From a virus (lineage: Duplodnaviria; Caudoviricetes), in IMG/VR virus record IMGVR_UViG_3300037195_000714, positions 1 through 27,847 of that record: a DNA stretch of 27,847 bases. One strand, written 5' to 3'. Of the stretch, positions 4,116-18,601 are shown one piece after another. Below the pieces are notes generated by a model, which searched no databases, was not told the DNA's origin, and saw nothing but the letters and a program-made list of their open reading frames with translations. The position numbers were made by a program, and so were the translations under genes. The stretch's first letter is position 1. The number at the start of each line of letters is the position of its first letter.

Positions 4116-4547
4116 TTATATATTATATATCTTAGTATAACTCTTAAATATCTCTTTGATTATCTTTTTAGCCTCTATTCTGTTATTAGCAAAAAATATG
4201 TTAATGCCATACTTAATGTGCAAAGTGAACAAAATCGACGTTATTACATAACCACGCATTTTGCTATAATATGACCCAACGAAATCTTTTTCTAAACATT
4301 TTGTGTACGAACCTTCTATTACAATGGCAAAGTAATCATACGACCGAGATTTTTCTAACTCTTTCTTAAACCGTTTATGACCGCCGCCTAACGTTCCGAA
4401 CAAATCGATCAAACTTTTTCGTTCGATCGAAATTCTATCTTCAAAACCTTCAAGACTGTAATCTCCTACATTTAACTTTTTTGATACTATATTTTTAACC
4501 CATAAAGGTTTTTGTTCTCTGGTATCGACCACTATTTTTACATCCAT
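4116..4547 (-). CDS. ERCC4/XPF-family structure-specific nuclease (resolvase-like)
   Basis: VVDTREQ, VGDY, IERKS..DL and IEG motifs. Confidence 0.92.
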   Translation of the reverse strand: MDVKIVVDTREQKPLWVKNIVSKKLNVGDYSLEGFEDRISIERKSLIDLFGTLGGGHKRFKKELEKSRSYDYFAIVIEGSYTKCLEKDFVGSYYSKMRGYVITSILFTLHIKYGINIFFANNRIEAKKIIKEIFKSYTKIYNI

Positions 4548-7165
4548 TCTGTTAATAATGCGTTTTTGTTAAACAATGGCTTAAATCTGTCCAAAAATAG
4601 GCTCATTTTGTTTTTAATGAAAAGATCAATATATTTTTGATAGTTAACTTCCATTTCTTTTGGCAATTTTGTATTTTCGTTCAACATTACCGCCTCGACA
4701 GATTTTCCTTTAAACGAGTGTGGATATTTCTGCAAAATGTTTACATAACACATACCTCCTTTGTAGTTTGCTCGACTAAAATCTGTTCCAAGATATTTGT
4801 TTGAATACATCATTGCTGTTACATGTTGTGGAGTAACTTTGTATTCGTTTAATTCTCTCGAAATTTGTTTAGTGATTAGCAACTGATTATACGTTAGATT
4901 TTTGATAGCTTCTTCAGCTTCGGTTATTGAATATTTAAGACTTTTGTTATCTTCGGAATTTATAACATCAATCAATAGCTTTTTTAGTATAGGACGCATA
5001 GCAGCAGGTGTATCTTTTTTAACCAGATCTATACCACGTCCGTACGATTTATCCGAGTTAAACGTTTTGCCTTTGATATATTTTCCATAGCCATAGTATT
5101 TCTTTTTAGCTTTAGACATTAACAGTTTTTGAAAAAATGTTTCAAAGTCCATTTCTATATATTTGTTGTCTAATTCGTAATATTCTTTGATAAAGTCTCC
5201 TATTTTGTCGTTTATTTCGTCTTTGACGCCAAACATTCGTTTAAGAACTGTGTCGTAATCTCTATCATCTTTAATGTGTATAAATGCACTATCTGTGTCA
5301 GCATAAATAGATGTACAATCTTCGATTTCATCAGCTAGAGTTAACGATTTTTTAACCATAACTCTAGCTAAATGTGTAATACAACGAGCACAGTTAATCG
5401 AATATAACCTAAAGTATTTATATTTTGAAACACCATATATTCCATTAATAACAGTTTTGATAGCGTTGTATTTGACTGGTAGAGTGACATCATCGCTGTC
5501 CTCCATTTGTTTACTTAGATCATCTTTCATAAACATTAGCTTATCAACTACGATTGTCATTAATCCGCGTCTATCTTTACTCGTATAATATAAATTGTCA
5601 ATATTGATACAGTTGTCTTTTTTGTAGTCAGTTATAGTTTCGTAGCTAATATTGAACTGTCGTATTAGATTTGGATAAAGAGATTTAAAATCTACCACTC
5701 CGACATAATTATATATTTCTGCTATAGGTTTCATAACATACGCTCCTTCTAATTCTTCAGAAGGATTTTCTTTTTTAGAAGGAAATACATAATCTTTGCT
5801 AAAGTTGCAAAGAATGAAGAAATCTATTATTTTAGAATTATATAAACTCCATTTGATATTAAACGTACTCATTAGTTGTTTAAACGATAAAAGATAGTTA
5901 ACCATACCTACATACTCTTCCAATTTTCTACATAATTCTACATCTTGTATATTATATTCGTATAATTTGAGAACATCTTCACGCCATAATGTAGCTGGAC
6001 CACGCGAATCATGAACTTTTTGTCCTAAATTTAAGAATTCACCTAAGTAATCTAAATTGAATCGGTTTGGTTTGTCTAGAGAATAGATGAAGAATTTATC
6101 TTTAGCATATTTCATAGCGTCGATAACATCTACGCCTGAGAATTCTAGTTTACGTTCGTCGTTTCTATCGCTAGCTTCTTTAATATCGTTTCTTATTTTG
6201 CCAACTGGCGAATAATTGTTAGGGTCTAGTCCTAACATTTTAGCTCTGTTAACTAAATATATATTATCAAAGCCGGAAATATTAAAGCCGGTGACCACGT
6301 TAGATTCGCTGAATACCTTCATAAATGCTTTAATCATATCAGCTTCTTTTTCGTATACAATTACATCATCTTTTCCTTTAAGAGAGCTCAAATCTTGACC
6401 GTCGTTTAATATCATAAACTTTGTTTCGAAGTTGTTTTTATATACAATTGATATAATTCGTCCTGGAGTATTTATAACGTCTACCGAACTATCTGTTTCA
6501 ATGTCATAAGTCATATAATTGATTTCTTCTTTTTTGATTGGTTCGAAGTAATCATAATAGTCGATGATGAATCTGTAATTTTCTCGCAGATCTCTTTCAA
6601 AAACATTAGGGTCTTTGTAATCATAATTATATAATTTTTTGCAGGGAACTCCGGTCAAAGTATACTTTTCAACTTGTTCTGGTGGACATTCGATCCAGCA
6701 ATAATCCTCATAAAAGAATCTAGCTTTAAACATTATATGATTAGCCATAAATATTATAACTTTAGAATATTGGTTGTCCATACTAACATTGTATATTTTC
6801 ATATTGTTTATGTTAGCGAAATATTTTCTCATAGTTATTTCGCAAAGGAATGTCATATATTTACGTTTATAATCAATTAGCAAATCATATTTAAGACGAC
6901 TAGTTATATACTTTTCTCTAAATTTTTTATATATTTCCATACCTATCAAATCTTGGTCTAGATATAATATAGGACATTTAATATTAGTGTTGTCTAGAGA
7001 GAGTTGAGTTAATATAACATGTGGTTTATTGTTTTCTATTACTGAGTAATCGATTTCCCCATTTAATAGTATATAATCACCTTCCTTAATATCAAACAAA
7101 GCTATTAGTATTTTTCTTTCTTCAGCAGGTAATTCTTTCTTAGTTATAAAAACCACATTACTCAT
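4538..7165 (-). CDS. polB: Family B DNA polymerase with 3'-5' exonuclease and an extra N-terminal region
   Basis: ExoI YDIETD, ExoII GFNISGFD, ExoIII YNIQD; polymerase motifs DFKSLYP, KTVINGIYG, YADTDS, KKKYYG. Confidence 0.96.
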   Translation of the reverse strand: MSNVVFITKKELPAEERKILIALFDIKEGDYILLNGEIDYSVIENNKPHVILTQLSLDNTNIKCPILYLDQDLIGMEIYKKFREKYITSRLKYDLLIDYKRKYMTFLCEITMRKYFANINNMKIYNVSMDNQYSKVIIFMANHIMFKARFFYEDYCWIECPPEQVEKYTLTGVPCKKLYNYDYKDPNVFERDLRENYRFIIDYYDYFEPIKKEEINYMTYDIETDSSVDVINTPGRIISIVYKNNFETKFMILNDGQDLSSLKGKDDVIVYEKEADMIKAFMKVFSESNVVTGFNISGFDNIYLVNRAKMLGLDPNNYSPVGKIRNDIKEASDRNDERKLEFSGVDVIDAMKYAKDKFFIYSLDKPNRFNLDYLGEFLNLGQKVHDSRGPATLWREDVLKLYEYNIQDVELCRKLEEYVGMVNYLLSFKQLMSTFNIKWSLYNSKIIDFFILCNFSKDYVFPSKKENPSEELEGAYVMKPIAEIYNYVGVVDFKSLYPNLIRQFNISYETITDYKKDNCINIDNLYYTSKDRRGLMTIVVDKLMFMKDDLSKQMEDSDDVTLPVKYNAIKTVINGIYGVSKYKYFRLYSINCARCITHLARVMVKKSLTLADEIEDCTSIYADTDSAFIHIKDDRDYDTVLKRMFGVKDEINDKIGDFIKEYYELDNKYIEMDFETFFQKLLMSKAKKKYYGYGKYIKGKTFNSDKSYGRGIDLVKKDTPAAMRPILKKLLIDVINSEDNKSLKYSITEAEEAIKNLTYNQLLITKQISRELNEYKVTPQHVTAMMYSNKYLGTDFSRANYKGGMCYVNILQKYPHSFKGKSVEAVMLNENTKLPKEMEVNYQKYIDLFIKNKMSLFLDRFKPLFNKNALLTEWM

Positions 7166-8052
7166 TTTAAATGTAAACTCCCTATATTTATTTTAAACTT
7201 TATATCAGCCGCTTTAAATATATCCCTGTTTAAGATTTTAGCTGTGTATGTTAATCCTGCTATATCATAAGGTAAATAGTTTTTTATATCAGAGCTACGC
7301 ATATTCACAATAAAATATAGAGTACCTAATCTGTATAAACATTGAACCGAGGTTATACAGGCGTTTAGAGTATAAACATATTGTCTACTTTCGTTAATAT
7401 GTTGGTCATAAATCTTTTTTTTAGTTAAAATTTCGTTTTTCATTCCATATACGATAGCATCATATTCGTGTAATCGTTTATTAAATTCAACGTAATCTAT
7501 TTGGTTAAAGGCTTCAGCTTGTTTAAGATCAAATTCTAATTCTGCATTTATTATTTCTTTCCCTATAAATTTGTTATGTTTGTGTTTGTGCGTTATTCTG
7601 TTTAATATAGATTCATATACAAGGGATAATTTATTAGTTTCCCATGTTTTGATGAATGATTTCATAGTTTTTATACACTCTGATATAGATTTACTAGTAT
7701 CTATTTTAACGATGGGTATAGATGTATTATTGAATTCATCTTCATAAACCTTATATAATTTATTAATGTCACTTTCTTTTATATCTTTTTCATCGTGTTT
7801 TAGGATTCTTTTGATAGTTTCTTCTTTTCCGCATTTCAGGTAAAATATAATAGCTTTAGATGCTAGTTTATCATTTATTTTAGCATATTCAGAGTATGGT
7901 AGAGGTCTTTTCCTGTATTTCCCGTAACAAGTTGAGGTTAAAGTGAATCTATTGCATACAGGGTATATATAGCCTGTAGCTTTGTGGAATTCAGCAATTA
8001 GCGTATCTTTTCCTTGTTTGTCAATTCCGTCAAATATTAAAATTGGTTTCAT
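7162..8052 (-). CDS. Fusion of an N-terminal thymidylate-kinase-like dNMP kinase and a C-terminal compact thymidylate synthase / dCMP-hydroxymethylase-like domain
   Basis: P-loop FDGIDKQGKDT plus NRF; then SRQ, ACITSVQ (catalytic Cys), MRSSD....LPYD and IGSLH matching ThyA-fold motifs. Confidence 0.8.
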   Translation of the reverse strand: MKPILIFDGIDKQGKDTLIAEFHKATGYIYPVCNRFTLTSTCYGKYRKRPLPYSEYAKINDKLASKAIIFYLKCGKEETIKRILKHDEKDIKESDINKLYKVYEDEFNNTSIPIVKIDTSKSISECIKTMKSFIKTWETNKLSLVYESILNRITHKHKHNKFIGKEIINAELEFDLKQAEAFNQIDYVEFNKRLHEYDAIVYGMKNEILTKKKIYDQHINESRQYVYTLNACITSVQCLYRLGTLYFIVNMRSSDIKNYLPYDIAGLTYTAKILNRDIFKAADIKFKINIGSLHLK

Positions 8053-8924
8053 TTTTTGTTTTCCTTGTCTTGTACAGATTCTGGTATTCCCATTTCTGTT
8101 CGTTTTCTCGCATATAAGAAGTTATGTGGATTGAACTTAAATAGTTTTTCGTGATTAGCGTCGGGTTGGTATAATCTCGTGTTTCTGGCTACAGGCGAGT
8201 TGATAAAGTGGCATCCTTTGTTGCATTGAAGAGAGACTGTTTGTGATATTTCAGGGATAACCTCTGCGATGCAATCTCTTATCTTCTGAGCTATTAAATT
8301 ATCGGTATAGGGTTGGACCATCTGACATTTTCGTTGGTTTATGAAATTAATAGCATCCTTCAGATTCATTCCTACATAATAATAGTAGGTATGATTCCTA
8401 TTCAATACATAACGAGCATCCATAACTGACACATCTTTAGAATCTACCATATCTGAATACAACTTCTTAGCCTCTCTTGATACTCTTTCATACTCATCTT
8501 TAAACTTAGAACTTTTAATAGAATTAGGTATCAATACATCATCATGTCTTAAATCCCTATCTCCACTACACAAAGCATGTATACTAAAAAAATATCTATG
8601 CCTCAATAAATGAGAAATTTCTATATGAGTCAATCCCTCTAACAAAAAAACGAAGGTCAAACTTTCCATAGAATTTGTCAACGTCTTCTTTTCTAACAAC
8701 AATTTAAAAGTCGAATCAATCTCTTCTTGAGACAACTTCTCTGCAGGATTCTCTTTCCAAGTACTCCTAATCATACGAGTACACAACTCTCTAAAGTCAT
8801 GCATTGGATGAGATACCATCGTTACATTGATAGCTTCCTGTTCTGTTTTAAATTGTGTCTTTGGTTCTTCAAAAAATTTAAGTTTCATTGGAAACTCTTG
8901 TATTTCCATATAGTCTGAGTTCAT
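8049..8924 (-). CDS. thyX: Divergent FAD-dependent thymidylate synthase (ThyX-like)
   Basis: SMESLTFVFLLEG, HLLRHR, DARYVL and MNLK...FINQR motifs; altered signature RHRYFFSIHALCSGDR. Confidence 0.8.
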   Translation of the reverse strand: MNSDYMEIQEFPMKLKFFEEPKTQFKTEQEAINVTMVSHPMHDFRELCTRMIRSTWKENPAEKLSQEEIDSTFKLLLEKKTLTNSMESLTFVFLLEGLTHIEISHLLRHRYFFSIHALCSGDRDLRHDDVLIPNSIKSSKFKDEYERVSREAKKLYSDMVDSKDVSVMDARYVLNRNHTYYYYVGMNLKDAINFINQRKCQMVQPYTDNLIAQKIRDCIAEVIPEISQTVSLQCNKGCHFINSPVARNTRLYQPDANHEKLFKFNPHNFLYARKRTEMGIPESVQDKENKK

Positions 8925-9421
8925 TTTATTCTCCTTATTTGCATTTTAACATCGTTGTATATTTTAGTTGCGTCTTTGTTTATTTTTCTCATGTATTCAT
9001 TCCCTAAATTAGCCTCACGACTTGAATAACAAATAACAGATAATATATCAGCTAATTTAACTATTAAAGAGATTTTAGTTTTCTGCTCTTCAAATTCTTT
9101 AAATAGTCGTTGCTCATGTTCAGTCAATAATTCTTTAGCTGCTATAAATTCACAATCCTGAATAGCTTTTTTAATCGGTTTAAAGGCTTTCTTGACATTG
9201 TGAGGAATATCGCTGACTAATATTTCTGGAATATCGTGTACAATAGCCATCTCTATAGCTGTAGTTTTATCTTCTTTACTAAGTTTAAACTCATCGCATA
9301 ATATTTTAGTAAAAGCTACAACGAAATAACTATGTTCAGCTACTGTTTCTTTGTGTATAGTTGGAGTATTGTTAAATCTAACAAGATCTCCTAATTTATA
9401 TAATTCAGTATATAAATTCAT
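8921..9421 (-). CDS. HD-domain 5'-deoxynucleotidase (YfbR/DatZ-like)
   Basis: RF...ETVAEHS...IVHDIPE...SDIP...VKLAD pattern. Confidence 0.9.
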   Translation of the reverse strand: MNLYTELYKLGDLVRFNNTPTIHKETVAEHSYFVVAFTKILCDEFKLSKEDKTTAIEMAIVHDIPEILVSDIPHNVKKAFKPIKKAIQDCEFIAAKELLTEHEQRLFKEFEEQKTKISLIVKLADILSVICYSSREANLGNEYMRKINKDATKIYNDVKMQIRRIK

Positions 9422-9894: not shown

Positions 9895-10230
9895 CTACAA
9901 CTGTTTCACCGAATATTGGGTATTGAATTGTTCGCCAACTTTAGTGATAGCTATCTTAACAATTTCTTTAGGGTTTTTCTTTTCTAAGATAGGCCTAAGT
10001 TTTTTCTTAAGTCTGTTGCTCGCTGTAGTGAATAGTTTTTCGCTGACAGGTTTGCCATCTTCTTCGGTTACATCTGCGATTAGTTCTACTGCTCCTGGCG
10101 CAATTCTCACATCTAGTGCTCGTTTTTCGAATCTCCAGTTAGTGATAGCTATCTTTTTTTCTACGTCTGTTTTAATAGCGACAAATCTACCCGATGTAGT
10201 CGCTTCTTCCCAACTTATATTTTCTGTCAT
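9895..10230 (-). CDS. Hypothetical beta-rich protein, possibly ssDNA-binding (OB-like)
   Basis: Start moved to ATG 10230 (AGGAGGT SD); beta-strand pattern ending TQYSV; lies in the replication operon. Confidence 0.55.
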   Translation of the reverse strand: MTENISWEEATTSGRFVAIKTDVEKKIAITNWRFEKRALDVRIAPGAVELIADVTEEDGKPVSEKLFTTASNRLKKKLRPILEKKNPKEIVKIAITKVGEQFNTQYSVKQL

Positions 10231-10666
10231 TTTTTGTGACCTCCTGTGTCTCATTTGACTTTTTTATGTCAGATGACCCTGATTTATGAAATCTCGTTAT
10301 AGCATAATAGGTTCGTATAGCCTTGACGGGTAAGAATCTTTCATTTCCACAGGAAATGAAGGTGTTCTTAACTACAGTATATGCTTTATAAAATATATTT
10401 TGTAAAAATGTTGAGATCGAGTTGTAATAGCCATAATAGGTCTGAGAGAGAATTATACCTTTCTGAGGTTCGTATAACCAATGTAGCGCGAACGGACCTA
10501 TTATCAGAATCTTGGTCTGCATAGGTATGTTTTTCATTAGGGGACCGTAACTTTTCCCTATAGTATCTATAAAATCTGATAATAGGTTCAAAACCACGTA
10601 CTTACATTCTGTTACATAATCGCAAGCCAACCTATTACAGACAAATCTGTGACTAACTTCCATCAT
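10187..10666 (-). CDS. Uncertain ORF spanning the repeat and structured element
   Basis: Open for ~160 codons in AT-rich DNA with a GAGGGGG SD, but no recognisable motifs and superimposed on repeats and hairpins. Confidence 0.35.
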   Translation of the reverse strand: MMEVSHRFVCNRLACDYVTECKYVVLNLLSDFIDTIGKSYGPLMKNIPMQTKILIIGPFALHWLYEPQKGIILSQTYYGYYNSISTFLQNIFYKAYTVVKNTFISCGNERFLPVKAIRTYYAITRFHKSGSSDIKKSNETQEVTKNDRKYKLGRSDYIG

Positions 10667-10696
10667 CGACCCCCTCAAATTGAGCTGTAATAGGTT
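10291..10696 (+). repeat. Six copies of TAATAGGT(T/C) in both orientations plus multiple hairpins; candidate replication origin or structured RNA
   Basis: Copies at 10304(+), 10433(+), 10495(-), 10575(+), 10629(-), 10685(+); AT-rich palindrome at 10385-10406. Confidence 0.7.
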
Positions 10697-13004
10697 TCAT
10701 AGTTTTTAACAACTCTGTATACTTTTCATTATAAAATTCCTTCAAATCTTCGCTTTTTGGCAATTTTATCACATTAACTATCTTATTTTCATTCAAAGCA
10801 TATAAAGTACTACGCCCTGGACTCTTATCTGCCATTATATAACCCAAATCTTCCAACTGTTTCAATTGACCCCACCAATAAGGCTGAGATTTACCCAAAT
10901 TTCTCATTATATCGCTTATTTGAAACTCCATATTCCAAGGACTCTTCTTAATATGATTAATCAAATCAATCTGTTCAATGGTTAAACCACTAAATGTTGC
11001 CCCTAAAATACCTGAACTATATTGTTTAGCTACATTATAATCATCTAAGTTACATATAATATACGTCCTCCCGTCCTTATCCTTTAATATAGGCCGTTGT
11101 TTTTGATGTAAATAGGCGTTAGAACGTATTAAAGTTTTAAACTTTTGATAATCTCTCCTTACCCTGACATCATTCAGAGGTATGTTAAGCCTTTTATAAT
11201 CAGAAAATGGTATAATGAAATGATGTTGCTCTAGTTGTTTTAAAGCATCTGAGATTAATCTTAATTTAGTTTCAATATCCTTTGAAATAGGTCTTTCTAA
11301 TGAATCCTGATATTCAAGAATTTGTCTAGTTTGGTCGTCTGAAACATCTAAACTTAATACCCAACTTCTATTATTAAGCTGATCTCCAACTAAACCTTCA
11401 GCTTGACAAGAAATAAAACAAGGTTGACCGATAGTAGATTTTTTGGAAAGCATATTAACTTCTTGTCCTTCCTCGTTTATAGTCTTTTCAACTGTGTTTA
11501 AAGTGATTTCTCCTTCAGACATCCAAACTCTGAGTTGCGATGTATTTTCATCTAAACCTTGCAATTCTTCGATAAATATGATTTTCCCATCAAAGTTAAT
11601 TTCAGTTAAGTAATTGATAGCAGATTTAGACATTCTACTTATAATGAAGTAATCTTCGTCTCTTTTGCCAAACAATTTTAATAGTTGTTTTATAATATAT
11701 GTTTTTCCAGAGGAACTGTCAGAAGACAAAATTATGTTCTGACTCATTGGATCATTTTCTATATTCCACTCTGGTCTTCCTCGTTTAGAAGGGAAATCTT
11801 TGCTTAATATTAAAAGGAATATCAGCATTTTGGTATCATCTTCGCCTACTATATATTCGTCTAATATTTCTTTAATCTGTTTTAATAACGTTGATTGAGT
11901 TAGCAAACGTAATGATTCTTTGTGATTTTTCTTACAAAACTCACACATAGTTTTGTTGTGTAATCCAGCAGATTCAGCTAGTCCACAATTCCAAAAGATT
12001 TTAGTTTGGGAATCAGTCCATTTAATCCACAATGCTGCTTCATCTATCGAGAATTTATCTCCTATCTGTGAGCAAGAGTTAACATATTCCTCCATTATTT
12101 TCATTTTGGAGTTATGTTCTAAGTTATCGTTTGCCATAGCAATTGATAATATTTGTGCTCCTAAAGATCGTTGTCCTTTATTTAGTCCCTCTCTTATTCT
12201 TTTGATACTTTCTAAGTTCATATAACCGCCATACTTTTCTAAATCGATTTCTGTGTATTTATATATGTTAGCTTGTTTACTAGATGATATATATTCTTGA
12301 AGATATTCTGATAGTTCATATATGCTTATTTGATAAAGATTTATACTAGTTGGATATCTGACTAAGTTAAAATCTTTGAGTTTAATTATTTTCTTTTTAA
12401 ATTCATCTTTAGGTATATATGTTTTATAAGTAACTTCAGTCGTATTGGATATTTTGTTTAATAATATTTTACGACCGCCAGCTATTCTGATTAACTTAGT
12501 TTTGTCTTTAAGATCATTAAAATTGATACAGCTGCTATCAACTATTTTCCCGTTGCCTCTTAGTTCATTCGAAATTCCAGCTTCGTCTAATATTTTGTTC
12601 CAAAACCAAAATCTGATATGTTTAAAAGAGAATCCATACGATGCTGCGCTTACGAACAATTCTTTAAATTCGCTTGTGACCAGCTGTGGTTTATCGAGCC
12701 AGCATTCGATATGGATTCCTTTTCCTCCACTAGAAAAAATATAATAAGGTATTTTTCTGTTGTCTAGAGAGTATAATATTTTAGTCGCTAATTCGTAATT
12801 AGCCGTGTAAGATTTAGCATCTAATTCAAATATAACTTGGTTAGATGCGACAGTTAAATAGTCTTTAAGAGTATAGAAATTAAGAGAGTATCTTTTGCCT
12901 GGAGTGTATTTATTTATTTTAGTATTAAGAAAGTTATTAGAACAGTAGATTGGATTAATAGCTGCAGTTTTTACTAGTTGTATATATTCATCTTGTAGAT
13001 TCAT
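10653..13004 (-). CDS. Primase-helicase: AEP primase, PriCT/PriL-like Cys region, P-loop ATPase and C-terminal wHTH
   Basis: FELD and SSGGKGIHI (AEP motifs), GQRS..., C..CEFC, Walker A SDSSSGKT, Walker B IFIEE; start moved to ATG 13004. Confidence 0.85.
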   Translation of the reverse strand: MNLQDEYIQLVKTAAINPIYCSNNFLNTKINKYTPGKRYSLNFYTLKDYLTVASNQVIFELDAKSYTANYELATKILYSLDNRKIPYYIFSSGGKGIHIECWLDKPQLVTSEFKELFVSAASYGFSFKHIRFWFWNKILDEAGISNELRGNGKIVDSSCINFNDLKDKTKLIRIAGGRKILLNKISNTTEVTYKTYIPKDEFKKKIIKLKDFNLVRYPTSINLYQISIYELSEYLQEYISSSKQANIYKYTEIDLEKYGGYMNLESIKRIREGLNKGQRSLGAQILSIAMANDNLEHNSKMKIMEEYVNSCSQIGDKFSIDEAALWIKWTDSQTKIFWNCGLAESAGLHNKTMCEFCKKNHKESLRLLTQSTLLKQIKEILDEYIVGEDDTKMLIFLLILSKDFPSKRGRPEWNIENDPMSQNIILSSDSSSGKTYIIKQLLKLFGKRDEDYFIISRMSKSAINYLTEINFDGKIIFIEELQGLDENTSQLRVWMSEGEITLNTVEKTINEEGQEVNMLSKKSTIGQPCFISCQAEGLVGDQLNNRSWVLSLDVSDDQTRQILEYQDSLERPISKDIETKLRLISDALKQLEQHHFIIPFSDYKRLNIPLNDVRVRRDYQKFKTLIRSNAYLHQKQRPILKDKDGRTYIICNLDDYNVAKQYSSGILGATFSGLTIEQIDLINHIKKSPWNMEFQISDIMRNLGKSQPYWWGQLKQLEDLGYIMADKSPGRSTLYALNENKIVNVIKLPKSEDLKEFYNEKYTELLKTMKPITAQFEGVDDGS

Positions 13005-13158
13005 CCTTAGTCCCTCTTTCAATGATTTTTATAGAGACTTCTAAAAGATCACCATCTTTTAAGTCTTTAACTTCGGCTAATTTCCTGGGTATAGTAATAC
13101 GTTTAACTCCGTTCATGTCTTTAACATTATCAAAAAAAAGGTATATTTTGTTTGTCAT
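12988..13158 (-). CDS. AbrB/SpoVT-like DNA-binding protein, 56 aa
   Basis: Hand translation MTNKIYLFFDNVKDMNGVKRITIPRKLAEVKDLKDGDLLEVSIKIIERGTKDESTR; ITIP...L..GD...V signature; missing from the ORF track. Confidence 0.85.
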   Translation of the reverse strand: MTNKIYLFFDNVKDMNGVKRITIPRKLAEVKDLKDGDLLEVSIKIIERGTKDESTR

Positions 13159-13721: not shown

Positions 13722-13897
13722 AAATTACTAAAGAACAATTTTTAGCGTTTGAAAAGGTTAGAATCTCTGGTAAGACAAATATGTTTGATATTAGACAGGT
13801 AGAAATTCTATCTAGTCTTAAACCATATCAAATTAAAGAAATTATAAAAGGGTATATATTACTTAAAAGTAAGTATGGAGGTATTGAAAATGACTAA
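13715..13897 (+). CDS. DUF5049-like small protein
   Basis: EQFLAFEKVRISGKTNMFD motif; start moved to ATG 13715 (GGAG SD). Confidence 0.7.
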   Translation: MLEITKEQFLAFEKVRISGKTNMFDIRQVEILSSLKPYQIKEIIKGYILLKSKYGGIEND

Positions 13898-14069
13898 TTG
13901 GGATGAAGTAAATAGAAAGAAAAGAAAAGAAATTACTCTTGGACAATCGTTAAACCAAGCATTAAATTTTCTTTTAGAAACAAATCAAGGTATAACAGAA
14001 GAAAGCTATAAGTTAAGAGCTAAGGCTTTCTTTAAATGGAATACAGAGTTACAAGAGGAGTTACTATGA
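13890..14069 (+). CDS. Hypothetical protein, paralog A (MTNWDE...TELQEELL)
   Basis: GGAGGT SD; clear paralog at 14389-14553. Confidence 0.8.
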   Translation: MTNWDEVNRKKRKEITLGQSLNQALNFLLETNQGITEESYKLRAKAFFKWNTELQEELL

Positions 14070-14239: not shown

Positions 14240-14392
14240 ATGAATTACAATCCCAAATGTGTTGGCAAGGATGCCACACACCCTAATTCTAGGGTTTGGG
14301 AAAATCAAAACAATGGGAATGTTTTGGTGTGCGAAGATTGTCACACTATCCATTGGGTGAAAAAGAAACGAAAGAGGAAAAAACAAAAATGA
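14240..14392 (+). CDS. Cys/His micro-protein with a basic tail, 50 aa
   Basis: MNYNPKC...H...VCEDCHTIHWVKKKRKRKKQK; GAGG SD; ATGA overlap with the next ORF. Confidence 0.55.
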   Translation: MNYNPKCVGKDATHPNSRVWENQNNGNVLVCEDCHTIHWVKKKRKRKKQK

Positions 14393-14553
14393 CAAACTGG
14401 GACGAGATCAATGCAAAGAAGCAAAAAGCAATAACTTTAGGCCAAGCAATGAACTTAGCAGCAGATTATTCTGGCCTAACTGAAGAAATGTATAAACATA
14501 AAACAAGACAATTTTTTAAATGGATGACAGAGTTGCAAGAGGAGTTGTTATGA
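14389..14553 (+). CDS. Hypothetical protein, paralog B (MTNWDE...TELQEELL)
   Basis: Paralog of 13890-14069; start moved to ATG 14389. Confidence 0.8.
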   Translation: MTNWDEINAKKQKAITLGQAMNLAADYSGLTEEMYKHKTRQFFKWMTELQEELL

Positions 14554-15436: not shown

Positions 15437-16015
15437 TTATGCATCCGCCAATAGATAGTCTTCAAGGTCATCACCATCTTCTAAGTCTTCTAAGGTATCC
15501 TCGTCAAACTCTCCAGATAGCAACATGTCTCTTACTTTGTAGTCATCTCTGCTGTCATCACAATAGAATTTAGTTTCAATTTCTACTTCGTAATTTCCTT
15601 CCTCGTCGTCCACGTCCCAGTTTACATCATAATCTTCAACCTCTACTTCTAACAAATCATCTTCATCGTACAATGTACAATTATATTCTGATTCGATAGT
15701 TGGGATAAGTTCGTCCTCAATAAAGTCTTCGTCTGCAATTAGTTCGTCGATGTAAACAATCATTGATTCTCTTACATCTTGCTCTTCTTGCAAGTCTTCA
15801 TCAACAACTGGACAAATAGCACATTCTTCACATACTACTTCTTCTACTACTGGACATTCTACATCAACATATTCTACTATAGTTTCTGTAATAGTCTCAG
15901 TTTCAATTACTACCTCTGGAGCTTCAAACATATCGTGAGCTGCTACTGCTATAAACAGTACACAAGCCAACACTGCTATGATTGAAATCCACAAAGGTGT
16001 TTCATGTTTTGCCAT
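15437..16015 (-). CDS. Membrane-anchored or secreted, very acidic protein
   Basis: N-terminal TM helix, ETIT/CPV linker, D/E-rich domain; GGAGG SD and its own promoter motif. Confidence 0.8.
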   Translation of the reverse strand: MAKHETPLWISIIAVLACVLFIAVAAHDMFEAPEVVIETETITETIVEYVDVECPVVEEVVCEECAICPVVDEDLQEEQDVRESMIVYIDELIADEDFIEDELIPTIESEYNCTLYDEDDLLEVEVEDYDVNWDVDDEEGNYEVEIETKFYCDDSRDDYKVRDMLLSGEFDEDTLEDLEDGDDLEDYLLADA

Positions 16016-17539: not shown

Positions 17540-18601
17540 TTATACTGCTCCGTCGTATCTTTCGTCAAACTTTAACATGGTAGCGTTTCCTCCACCAAGC
17601 AAAATTACTCCGGAATGTTCAGCTAACAAGCTCCTTGCGAAAAATAGTTGTAAGTCTGTATCTAGACTAACTGTTACACTTCTGCCAACTTGCCAATTTT
17701 GTCCACTATCTATACTTCTATAAAGTGTTGCAGTACTATAATTTCTTACTGATGAATCCTCATTGTTAGTGAACGTAGCAAAGTATATGTATCCTGTATC
17801 AGTCAATACAAAGTTTGTAGTATAGATTGTACCTGTCCCAAGGTTTAACTTTTCAGAAATTGCTACTAAGTTGGTTCCGTAACCTACAGACAATGCTGTT
17901 GATGGTCCACCGTTATTACCAGTAACGAAAACATATTCTGTTGAAGATATTGCTTTAATATGGTTATCTGTCCTATGTGTAACACCAAATGTTGTATCTG
18001 TCCAATTATCTCCACCATCAGTTGTATACCAAACATTACCCGCAGAGTCTGCTGCAAAGCCGTAAGTTGCGTCATACATATCAATTGTCCAAACATCTGC
18101 TGCTGGTCCAGTTGTACAAATTGTCCATGTGTCACCCTGATCAGTACTTCTGAATATACCCCTTGCTGCTGCTCCTAAGTCACAAGCACATACTGCGACA
18201 CCAGTTGTTGGGAACGATACGTCATGTATCTTTGTTGTTGCTGCTGGTGGTGTTGAAATCTGTGCCCAGTTATCACCACTGTCTGATGTAATATATCCGT
18301 CTAATGCATCATGATCAAAACTTATTGCGTTTGCTCTGGTTCCTTCACATCTAACAGTTGCACCAGTCATTGCTGCATTATCTACTGATGCTTCTGTCCA
18401 GTTTGCTCCACCGTCTGAAGTTATCCAAGAGCCTGCTCCATTCGCTATTGACCAAGCTGTTGTTGTGTGCATTAACACATTACGCATTGAGGTATTAACC
18501 CAATACATCGGTACAAATCGTGTACCAGAATATACGTGATTTATCTCAGATGCATAACCTATGTCTCCCGCTGATTTGGGGAATACTCCTTCTGCTGCCA
18601 T
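17540..18601 (-). CDS. BNR/Asp-box beta-propeller, putative receptor-binding protein
   Basis: Five Asp-boxes: TSDGGANW, TSDSGDNW, STDQGDTW, TTDGGDNW, SIDSGQNW. Confidence 0.85.
   Translation of the reverse strand: MAAEGVFPKSAGDIGYASEINHVYSGTRFVPMYWVNTSMRNVLMHTTTAWSIANGAGSWITSDGGANWTEASVDNAAMTGATVRCEGTRANAISFDHDALDGYITSDSGDNWAQISTPPAATTKIHDVSFPTTGVAVCACDLGAAARGIFRSTDQGDTWTICTTGPAADVWTIDMYDATYGFAADSAGNVWYTTDGGDNWTDTTFGVTHRTDNHIKAISSTEYVFVTGNNGGPSTALSVGYGTNLVAISEKLNLGTGTIYTTNFVLTDTGYIYFATFTNNEDSSVRNYSTATLYRSIDSGQNWQVGRSVTVSLDTDLQLFFARSLLAEHSGVILLGGGNATMLKFDERYDGAV

Follow-up and report, generated by a model that had tools for sequence, protein, structure and literature searches.

A kinase-fused minimal ThyA-fold domain beside a rewired ThyX-fold protein in a viral gene module predicted to modify cytosine deoxynucleotides

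The window analysed here is the whole of a 27,847-nucleotide stretch of DNA from a tailed virus (Duplodnaviria; Caudoviricetes), positions 1 to 27,847 of IMG/VR record IMGVR_UViG_3300037195_000714. It holds an open reading frame (ORF) that joins a deoxynucleoside monophosphate (dNMP) kinase-like domain to a minimal form of the fold of the thymidylate synthase (TS) ThyA and of dCMP hydroxymethylase, hereafter the mini-domain. The adjoining gene encodes a ThyX-fold protein with a rewired active site, hereafter the ThyX paralog. Such genes are currently annotated as plain thymidylate synthase or kinase. An initial annotation, made from the letters of the window, proposed that the mini-domain bears the aspartate that selects cytosine. 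We find it probable that this domain works in a pathway of base modification, with a cytosine deoxynucleotide as its substrate.

Results

A dNMP kinase-like domain fused to a minimal ThyA fold

The N-terminal half of the fusion protein (amino acids 1-140) scores at the Pfam Thymidylate_kin cut-off and has YorR as a structural match (Z 16.2, root mean square deviation 2.4, 141 aligned residues). The features of TMK/YorR-like dNMP kinases, namely the P-loop GK, the (D/N)R motif and the fold, are present, and G14, K15, R35 and R82 are found without exception in 40/40 fused relatives. The mini-domain has the fold and the Cys/Arg-Ser/His core of the ThyA superfamily, and its Pfam PF00303 score is 18 bits, below the 24.3 cut-off. 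An AlphaFold2 model of the fusion protein had a mean pLDDT of 92.4; the top Foldseek matches of this model were the HY126 dCMP hydroxylase AfhB (9iqu) and T4 dCH, in agreement with the ThyA-like fold that had been anticipated. In a second structural comparison all ranked rows were kinases and the TS half was not represented. A word-index homolog search with the fusion protein returned only the protein itself, and single-protein locus scans gave no match. Longer fusions of the mini-domain, for example with the ThyX paralog, were absent among 7999 candidates, a negative of little weight.

The mini-domain keeps the nucleotide site and has lost the cofactor site

A HMMER search of 1.84 billion representative sequences gave 188 matches at E <= 0.001. 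Alignments were built from 54 of the 150 listed matches, those covering the TS half, and from the 40 fused ones; all fetched loci together held 127 mini-domain matches, reduced to 88 representatives below 90% identity. Profile alignment with E. coli ThyA placed RSSDIKNYLPYD on RSCDVFLGLPFN and Asp263 on Asn177, as the initial annotation had done by eye, and profile alignment with T4 gp42 placed the RSSDIKNYLPYD region on RSNDVVFGFRND and Asp263 on Asp179 (probability 95.9). The catalytic cysteine, likewise noted at the outset, is Cys232. Across the representatives the active-site positions are kept almost without exception (Table 1), the single miss at Arg252, Ser253, Asp263 and His294 being a cut contig, and the Arg, Cys, Arg-Ser, Asp and His are kept in 32/32 sequences only about 20% alike. 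Glu166 is present in 83/88 and Tyr197 in 84/88; at the Asp169 position Asp (42), Asn (30) and Glu (13) all occur, and conservation is lacking at the Tyr209 position.

The family profile matched wild-type T4 dCMP hydroxymethylase (E 2.1e-6) better than its D179N mutant (E 1.1e-4). The Asn177 of thymidylate synthase is not found, Asp taking its place in 87/88 representatives, and both the Asp at 177/179 and the catalytic Cys of dCMP hydroxymethylase are present. Aspartate at 177 is a mark of dCMP use (PMC13326640; PMC8670742; papers are cited throughout for the portions of their text that were available). The alignment, the model and the preference of the profile for the wild type thus support the cytosine-type specificity first proposed, as a prediction from sequence.

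The mini-domain ends at GSLHLK, as initially described, and much of the folate-binding region and of the tail is indeed missing. The loop from Arg223 to Cys232 counts 8 residues in 84/88 representatives, and a median of 3 residues (88 representatives) follows the His207 equivalent, whereas T4 gp42, RB69 gp48 and E. coli ThyA all retain the long loop and the N-terminal region and have a much longer tail. The parts of the loop and tail that the mini-domain has lost bind folate. Neither the full loop nor the C-terminal tail of ThyA is found; Leu229 stands three positions ahead of the Cys, and the acidic residue 143 of the long loop is absent. Of the features of a 5-hydroxy-dCMP synthase (N177D, L143E and about 235 amino acids), the mini-domain therefore has the Asp and neither the loop nor the length. 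Because the nucleotide and nucleophile positions are kept at about 20% identity and the cofactor parts are lost, the mini-domain appears to be under selection for covalent nucleotide chemistry.

Table 1. Features of the fusion gene and of the module around it, all on the minus strand of the window
Feature	Positions	Strand	Details
Kinase::mini-ThyA fusion ORF	7162..8052	(-)	296 amino acids, ends GSLHLK
dNMP-kinase-like P-loop domain, YorR/TMK fold	7633..8052	(-)	amino acids 1-140
Minimal ThyA/dCMP-hydroxymethylase fold	7165..7632	(-)	amino acids ~141-296, ~155 residues
Arg223, ThyA Arg126 position	7384..7386	(-)	86/88 representatives
Cys232 (TGT), ThyA Cys146 position	7357..7359	(-)	88/88
Arg252-Ser253, ThyA Arg166-Ser167	7294..7299	(-)	87/88
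Asp263 (GAT), ThyA Asn177 / T4 Asp179 position	7264..7266	(-)	87/88
His294, ThyA His207 position	7171..7173	(-)	87/88; two residues before protein end
ThyX-fold protein, rewired site	8049..8924	(-)	RHR kept, changes relative to T. maritima
YfbR/DatZ-like HD nucleotide phosphohydrolase	8921..9421	(-)	phrog_7076
Nucleoside 2'-deoxyribosyltransferase (NDT), transferase-type residues	9418..9861	(-)	
Family B DNA polymerase	4538..7165	(-)	overlaps fusion-gene stop by 4 bases

The ThyX paralog is unlikely to make thymidylate

The ThyX paralog keeps the ThyX fold and the RHR motif, but compared with the T. maritima enzyme it shows Ser88 changed to Cys, Arg90 to Gly, Tyr91 to Asp and His53 to Leu; the canonical features (RHR-x7-S motif, Arg90, Tyr91, His53) are thus not found in it. 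Its best PDB match, 3g4c, is a sequence with Cys at 88. In ThyX, S88, R90 and Y91 serve methylene transfer and R174 activates dUMP (PMC8316439). All three methylene-transfer residues differ in the paralog, and the Arg174 equivalent is present in 59/59 paralogs.

The 89 loci of the fusion family were sampled in a whole-record search of 29 contigs, for the most part the longest. All 29 mini-domain contigs matched the ThyX-like alignment, 28 of them at E <= 6e-72, several of the matched proteins being members of the query alignment. In G029 (L and G numbers denote loci and genomes) the matched protein scored as a canonical ThyX, and the mini-domain gene is adjoined by a Thy1 gene that is more divergent. 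The link to the ThyX-like neighbour drawn in the initial annotation is therefore supported by co-occurrence in 28/29 contigs. No ThyA above the Pfam cut-off was found in the 29 contigs (0/29). Ten contigs had a second ThyX, which in 8/10 carried the canonical RHRTW(S/A)YNEISRRY with a His ahead, the remaining 2 giving no readout, and G053 has a full-length ThyA of the Asn type. Because of these canonical second ThyX genes and the Asn-type ThyA, the paralog is probably not the source of thymidylate.

The module in the window and its variants

In the window the NDT, HD, ThyX-like, fusion and polymerase genes follow one another with successive 4-base overlaps. The NDT residues Pro43, Asp83, Glu89 and Asn113 are present in 97/97 representatives and the nearest structure is a bacterial NDT; by the criteria of PMC12884076, as far as available, the protein is a predicted nucleoside transferase, not a monophosphate hydrolase. 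The content of the block (synthase, kinase, hydrolase of canonical nucleotides, own polymerase) matches that of pre-replicative viral base replacement, the substrates being predicted.

L104, L109, L112, L141, L160 and L182 encode the kinase and the mini-domain in two genes, and the mini-domain also stands alone in L134. In L160 (8186-9133), L172 (5812-6759) and L182 (7800-8738) the kinase is fused to NDT. Channelling of the product by the kinase fusion, as once suggested, can hence be optional only.

One fusion subfamily gave 152 viral-contig matches, and the ThyX paralog 246 viral matches and at least 539 metagenome stretches. Cellular genomes nearly lack the module: the 1 GTDB match, L282 (PBHZ01000014.1), falls in an archaeal metagenome-assembled genome, on a block like those of jumbo phages (NDT, HD, ThyX-like, DnaE, fusion, deaminase), probably a binned virus contig.

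Tailoring genes occur within the module: an FkbM methyltransferase with a 242-amino-acid gene (L105:8220-10002), a SPASM-domain protein (L107:8884-9831), a TAGT/glucosyltransferase-like gene (L108:8852-9694) and a class I methyltransferase (L003:7019-7888). Their variety suggests several end products. Within the ThyX paralog, Thr249 is found in 46/47 proteins from contigs with the mini-domain and Ser in 11/12 from contigs that lack it, and Gly121 in 46/47 as against Ala in 8/12, both patterns being confounded by kinship.

A Zn deaminase is present in 17/30 genomes, with, without and instead of the mini-domain, so it does not decide on the mechanism; a rule by which the mini-domain replaces this enzyme is unsupported by the mixed co-occurrence in the 30 genomes. 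A dUTPase is encoded in 9/90 clustered sequences and in Geobacillus phage GR1, and uracil DNA is unlikely for these members.

The window polymerase is 53% identical to that of L203 (1489-4362), and close relatives have a longer N-terminus. In G038 (C1:9936-10298) this extension is a domain of the uracil-DNA glycosylase (UDG) family in the same 969-amino-acid frame; the window polymerase is about 65 amino acids shorter there and did not match UDG. In L003, UDG is encoded by a gene of its own immediately ahead of the fusion gene. Deamination repair was rejected as a general part of the module, UDG occurring in 2/30 genomes.

With its genes for terminase, tail tube, family B polymerase and ERCC4 nuclease, the window represents part of a tailed virus genome; the record is 72% complete. 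The best-scoring of the 12 polymerase matches listed was from a Halorubrum virus (26% identity); an archaeal host would be only a guess. Further minus-strand genes encode a 789-amino-acid (10653-13022) and a 119-amino-acid protein (9895-10254) outside any Pfam family, and upstream of the L104 module both have homologs in unchanged order (E 2e-166 and 1e-22); as guesses, they might be a primase-helicase and a single-stranded DNA-binding protein. Two small paralogous plus-strand ORFs (13875-14069, MTNWDEV..., and 14296-14553, MTNWDEI...) form the sole plus-strand gene block, and the GC skew changes sign at 13-15 kb. On the minus strand, the tail genes include one for a BNR/Vps10-like repeat protein (17540-18601), and a further gene (15437-16015) encodes a strongly acidic protein whose N-terminus has a hydrophobic segment.

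A cultured phage with the module

Of 50,697 phage genomes, one record alone, that of Geobacillus phage GR1 (OK896991), matched the ThyX paralog and the mini-domain of L141. Its block runs NDT, thioredoxin, HD, glycosyltransferase, a gene of unknown function, kinase, RNase H, nitroreductase, ThyX-like, mini-domain, a second unknown, polymerase and dUTPase, and its mini-domain keeps the motif residues. An alpha-glucosyltransferase-family gene (phrog_2888) lies in the module of GR1 (E 6e-55) and of G053 (E 6e-53); the putative function in GR1 is read from the family name only, and the GR1-type protein had no sequence match in the PDB. A DNA glucosyltransferase requires a hydroxyl on the base. Searches of GR1 found neither a full-length TS nor a C5-methyltransferase, and its annotation names no TET-like gene; the module would therefore be the only visible source of such a hydroxyl. 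In GR1 (L183:13286-13885), and likewise in G053, a gene for a nitroreductase-family flavoprotein lies directly upstream of the ThyX paralog; this protein could supply reduced flavin.

Discussion

In the mini-domain the phosphate, sugar, base and nucleophile positions are all kept, and the loop and tail round the cofactor site are gone. As a tentative account, to which we give a little under an even chance, dCMP would be activated covalently by the mini-domain, a flavoprotein would supply the missing unit, and the kinase would phosphorylate dCMP bearing a hydroxyl on C5. Cys232 would add to C6 of dCMP, with Asp263 reading cytosine, so that C5 turns nucleophilic. The ThyX paralog would then provide either a carbon at the formaldehyde level, giving 5-hydroxymethyl-dCMP, or an oxygen equivalent, giving 5-hydroxy-dCMP, and the kinase would carry the modified product to the diphosphate. 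Meanwhile the HD enzyme and the deoxyribosyltransferase may drain or recycle the normal nucleotide, the viral polymerase would incorporate the new base, and some viruses would then likely glycosylate the hydroxyl. The hydroxymethyl product is ranked first because the sequence is nearest to T4 gp42, because ThyX handles formaldehyde-level carbon on its flavin (PMC8316439), and because GR1 has the alpha-glucosyltransferase-family gene. In its strict form this account makes a split enzyme of both unrelated TS folds, the ThyA core activating dCMP and the ThyX-fold flavoprotein delivering carbon or oxygen, which we hold to be unlikely. If true, it would extend non-canonical cytosine from small viruses with a family B polymerase to jumbo phages, with NDT swapping bases in and out of the pool.

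C5 activation for a partner is the best fit among the three chemistries that the initial annotation offered. Flavin hydroxylation by the mini-domain on its own is less likely, as it has neither the N-terminal region nor the loop, both of which RB69 gp48 retains. The case for deamination to supply an ordinary ThyX is weakened, since the neighbour does not qualify as one and Zn dCMP deaminases are found both together with the mini-domain and in its absence.

Several observations weigh against covalent activation of dCMP for the ThyX paralog. The paralog retains its own conserved Cys, the equivalents of Arg147 and Arg174 and an invariant Asp, which makes nucleotide binding by the paralog itself probable. 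His53, a folate contact in ThyX, is lost, and the carbon source is less evident for this reason. A MazG-type dCTPase was not found in the window (which, as said, is from an incomplete record), and DNA glucosyltransferase families occur in 2/46 and 1/46 genomes and not in the window. GR1 encodes integrases and two records are classed as proviruses, which fits uneasily with complete base replacement. The GR1 paper, in its available portions, gives no biochemical or DNA-chemistry data (PMC10237291). The HD gene, present in 18/35 overall, is absent from most jumbo phages.

The distribution of the mini-domain counts most. Of the 246 viral matches of the ThyX paralog 80 were fetched, and the records behind 49 of them and GR1 were searched; the mini-domain was present in only 24/50, and such counts overstate independence, many contigs being related jumbo phages. 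Most of the 26 contigs without it are short fragments, but filter-free local searches also failed to find it over the whole length of the complete 51-kb G034 and in G030, G033 and G039 (63-75% complete). A quick tree of 59 ThyX paralogs, from which L203 and L211 were left out for length, required four changes of the mini-domain-presence label. From this one-way co-occurrence and the separable genes, the core of the module consists of the ThyX-like protein and NDT, to which HD and kinase are usually added; the mini-domain is often present as a dependent partner. The one-way dependence is the chief evidence against a strict two-subunit enzyme and for sequential tailoring.

We considered the possibility that the ThyX paralog alone makes a first modified pyrimidine and that the mini-domain performs a second, cofactor-free step, exchanging a group at the C5-methylene or N4 or removing a C5 group through the Cys-C6 adduct. 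The dependence, paralog with nearly every mini-domain (28/29) and not the reverse, including the complete G034, is as expected for such an order, and loci devoid of the mini-domain hold the FkbM methyltransferase, SPASM-domain and glucosyltransferase-like genes in the module. For cysteine-activated cytosine there are precedents of cofactor-free aldehyde addition and deamination. Yet a conserved pocket for a second substrate is not evident beyond Glu166 and Tyr197, and the paralog has largely identical active-site residues whether or not the mini-domain is present. We regard this order of events as rather unlikely.

Alternatively, the mini-domain could be a cofactor-free dCMP deaminase, in which the Cys-C6 adduct speeds hydrolysis at C4 and dUMP passes to the ThyX paralog, the altered base replacing thymine. 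Such a reaction does not require the cofactor site, and the paralog retains the equivalent of Arg174, the activator of uracil N3 in ThyX (PMC8316439). A Zn deaminase directly follows the paralog in L108, L110, L118, L199, L201 and L211, which lack the mini-domain, and in GR1 and G053 the mini-domain is present but the Zn deaminase absent. Against this, G025, G031, G072 and jumbo phages have both genes and G034 has neither, a Zn deaminase lies within about 9 kb in 71/90 clustered sequences (89 domain loci plus the window), and several genomes retain canonical thymidylate synthases; a deaminase is, in our judgement, quite unlikely. Ordinary pyrimidine supply or salvage, in which the genes would only boost pools of dTTP or dCTP and the mini-domain would be a regulatory remnant that binds dCMP on the kinase, is very improbable. 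Viruses commonly carry thymidine kinase, dUTPase, dCMP deaminase, NDT and TMK for nucleotide supply (PMC8651126), and GR1 DNA was amenable to PCR and Illumina sequencing (PMC10237291). But the Cys is kept in every representative, several viruses encode the mini-domain as a gene of its own, the paralog is redundant for dTMP where a second, canonical ThyX or ThyA exists, and a DNA glucosyltransferase-family gene lies within the GR1 module.

A description of the mini-domain or of the module was not found in the open-access literature, subscription papers being mostly outside the coverage, and a term search of 4 MetaGPA supplements (PMC8670742, as far as available) returned none of six Pfam accessions. 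GR1 is a cultured phage of a harmless thermophile, and its base is therefore directly measurable.

Comparison with known systems

To our knowledge, the pre-replicative cytosine modifications described so far depend on full-length ThyA homologs with folate or flavin binding of their own. The closest in sequence is T4 gp42 (PDB 1b49, 1b5d), the best PDB sequence match of the mini-domain, with which the ThyA fold is shared and the SRR, Cys, RS, Asp179 and GSLH all align. The T4 pathway also has a dNMP kinase partner, and the alpha-glucosyltransferase-family gene of GR1 is reminiscent of the T4 DNA glucosyltransferases. However, gp42 has 246 amino acids as against about 155, and the mini-domain lacks the Asp145 region and the tail beyond the His; unlike in T4, it is often fused to a kinase and has a near-obligate ThyX-fold neighbour, and no dCTPase is seen in the window.

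HY126 AfhB (PDB 9iqu, 9iqc), RB69 gp48 and DLP3 gp80 are flavin-dependent 5-hydroxy-dCMP synthases, folate-independent ThyA folds acting on dCMP (PMC13326640). These enzymes share with the mini-domain the Asp at 177, a YorR/TMK-like kinase gene nearby and, in most members of the mini-domain family, the short tail with a SAH-type motif. They differ in their length of 234-238 amino acids, a long loop with Glu at 143, the N-terminal region and flavin binding of their own. The arabinose genes of the 5-hydroxy-dCMP systems are absent from the window, and the available text of that paper makes no mention of ThyX.

With ThyX TM0449 of T. maritima and the ThyX-fold PolB (4p5b), the neighbour shares the fold, the RHR motif and the Glu58, Arg147 and Arg174 positions. 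It differs in having Cys for Ser88, Gly or Ala for Arg90, Asp for Tyr91, Leu for His53 and Thr or Ser for Arg74, and in coexisting with a canonical ThyX. In the Z-genome pathway (PurZ, DatZ, DmtZ), the base synthase is flanked, as here, by an HD phosphohydrolase and an NDT-family enzyme (PMC12884076, in part); that pathway concerns a purine and the present module a pyrimidine, and the window NDT keeps the Asp and Asn that mark binding of a nucleoside 5'-OH, which DmtZ lacks.

The module is thus likely a variant of pre-replicative pyrimidine modification that resembles the T4 and RB69 pathways, lacks the features that define membership in either, and involves new enzymology. Since a catalytic core stripped of its cofactor parts is paired with a rewired ThyX, at least one of the two folds would, whichever explanation holds, be carrying out chemistry that is new to it.

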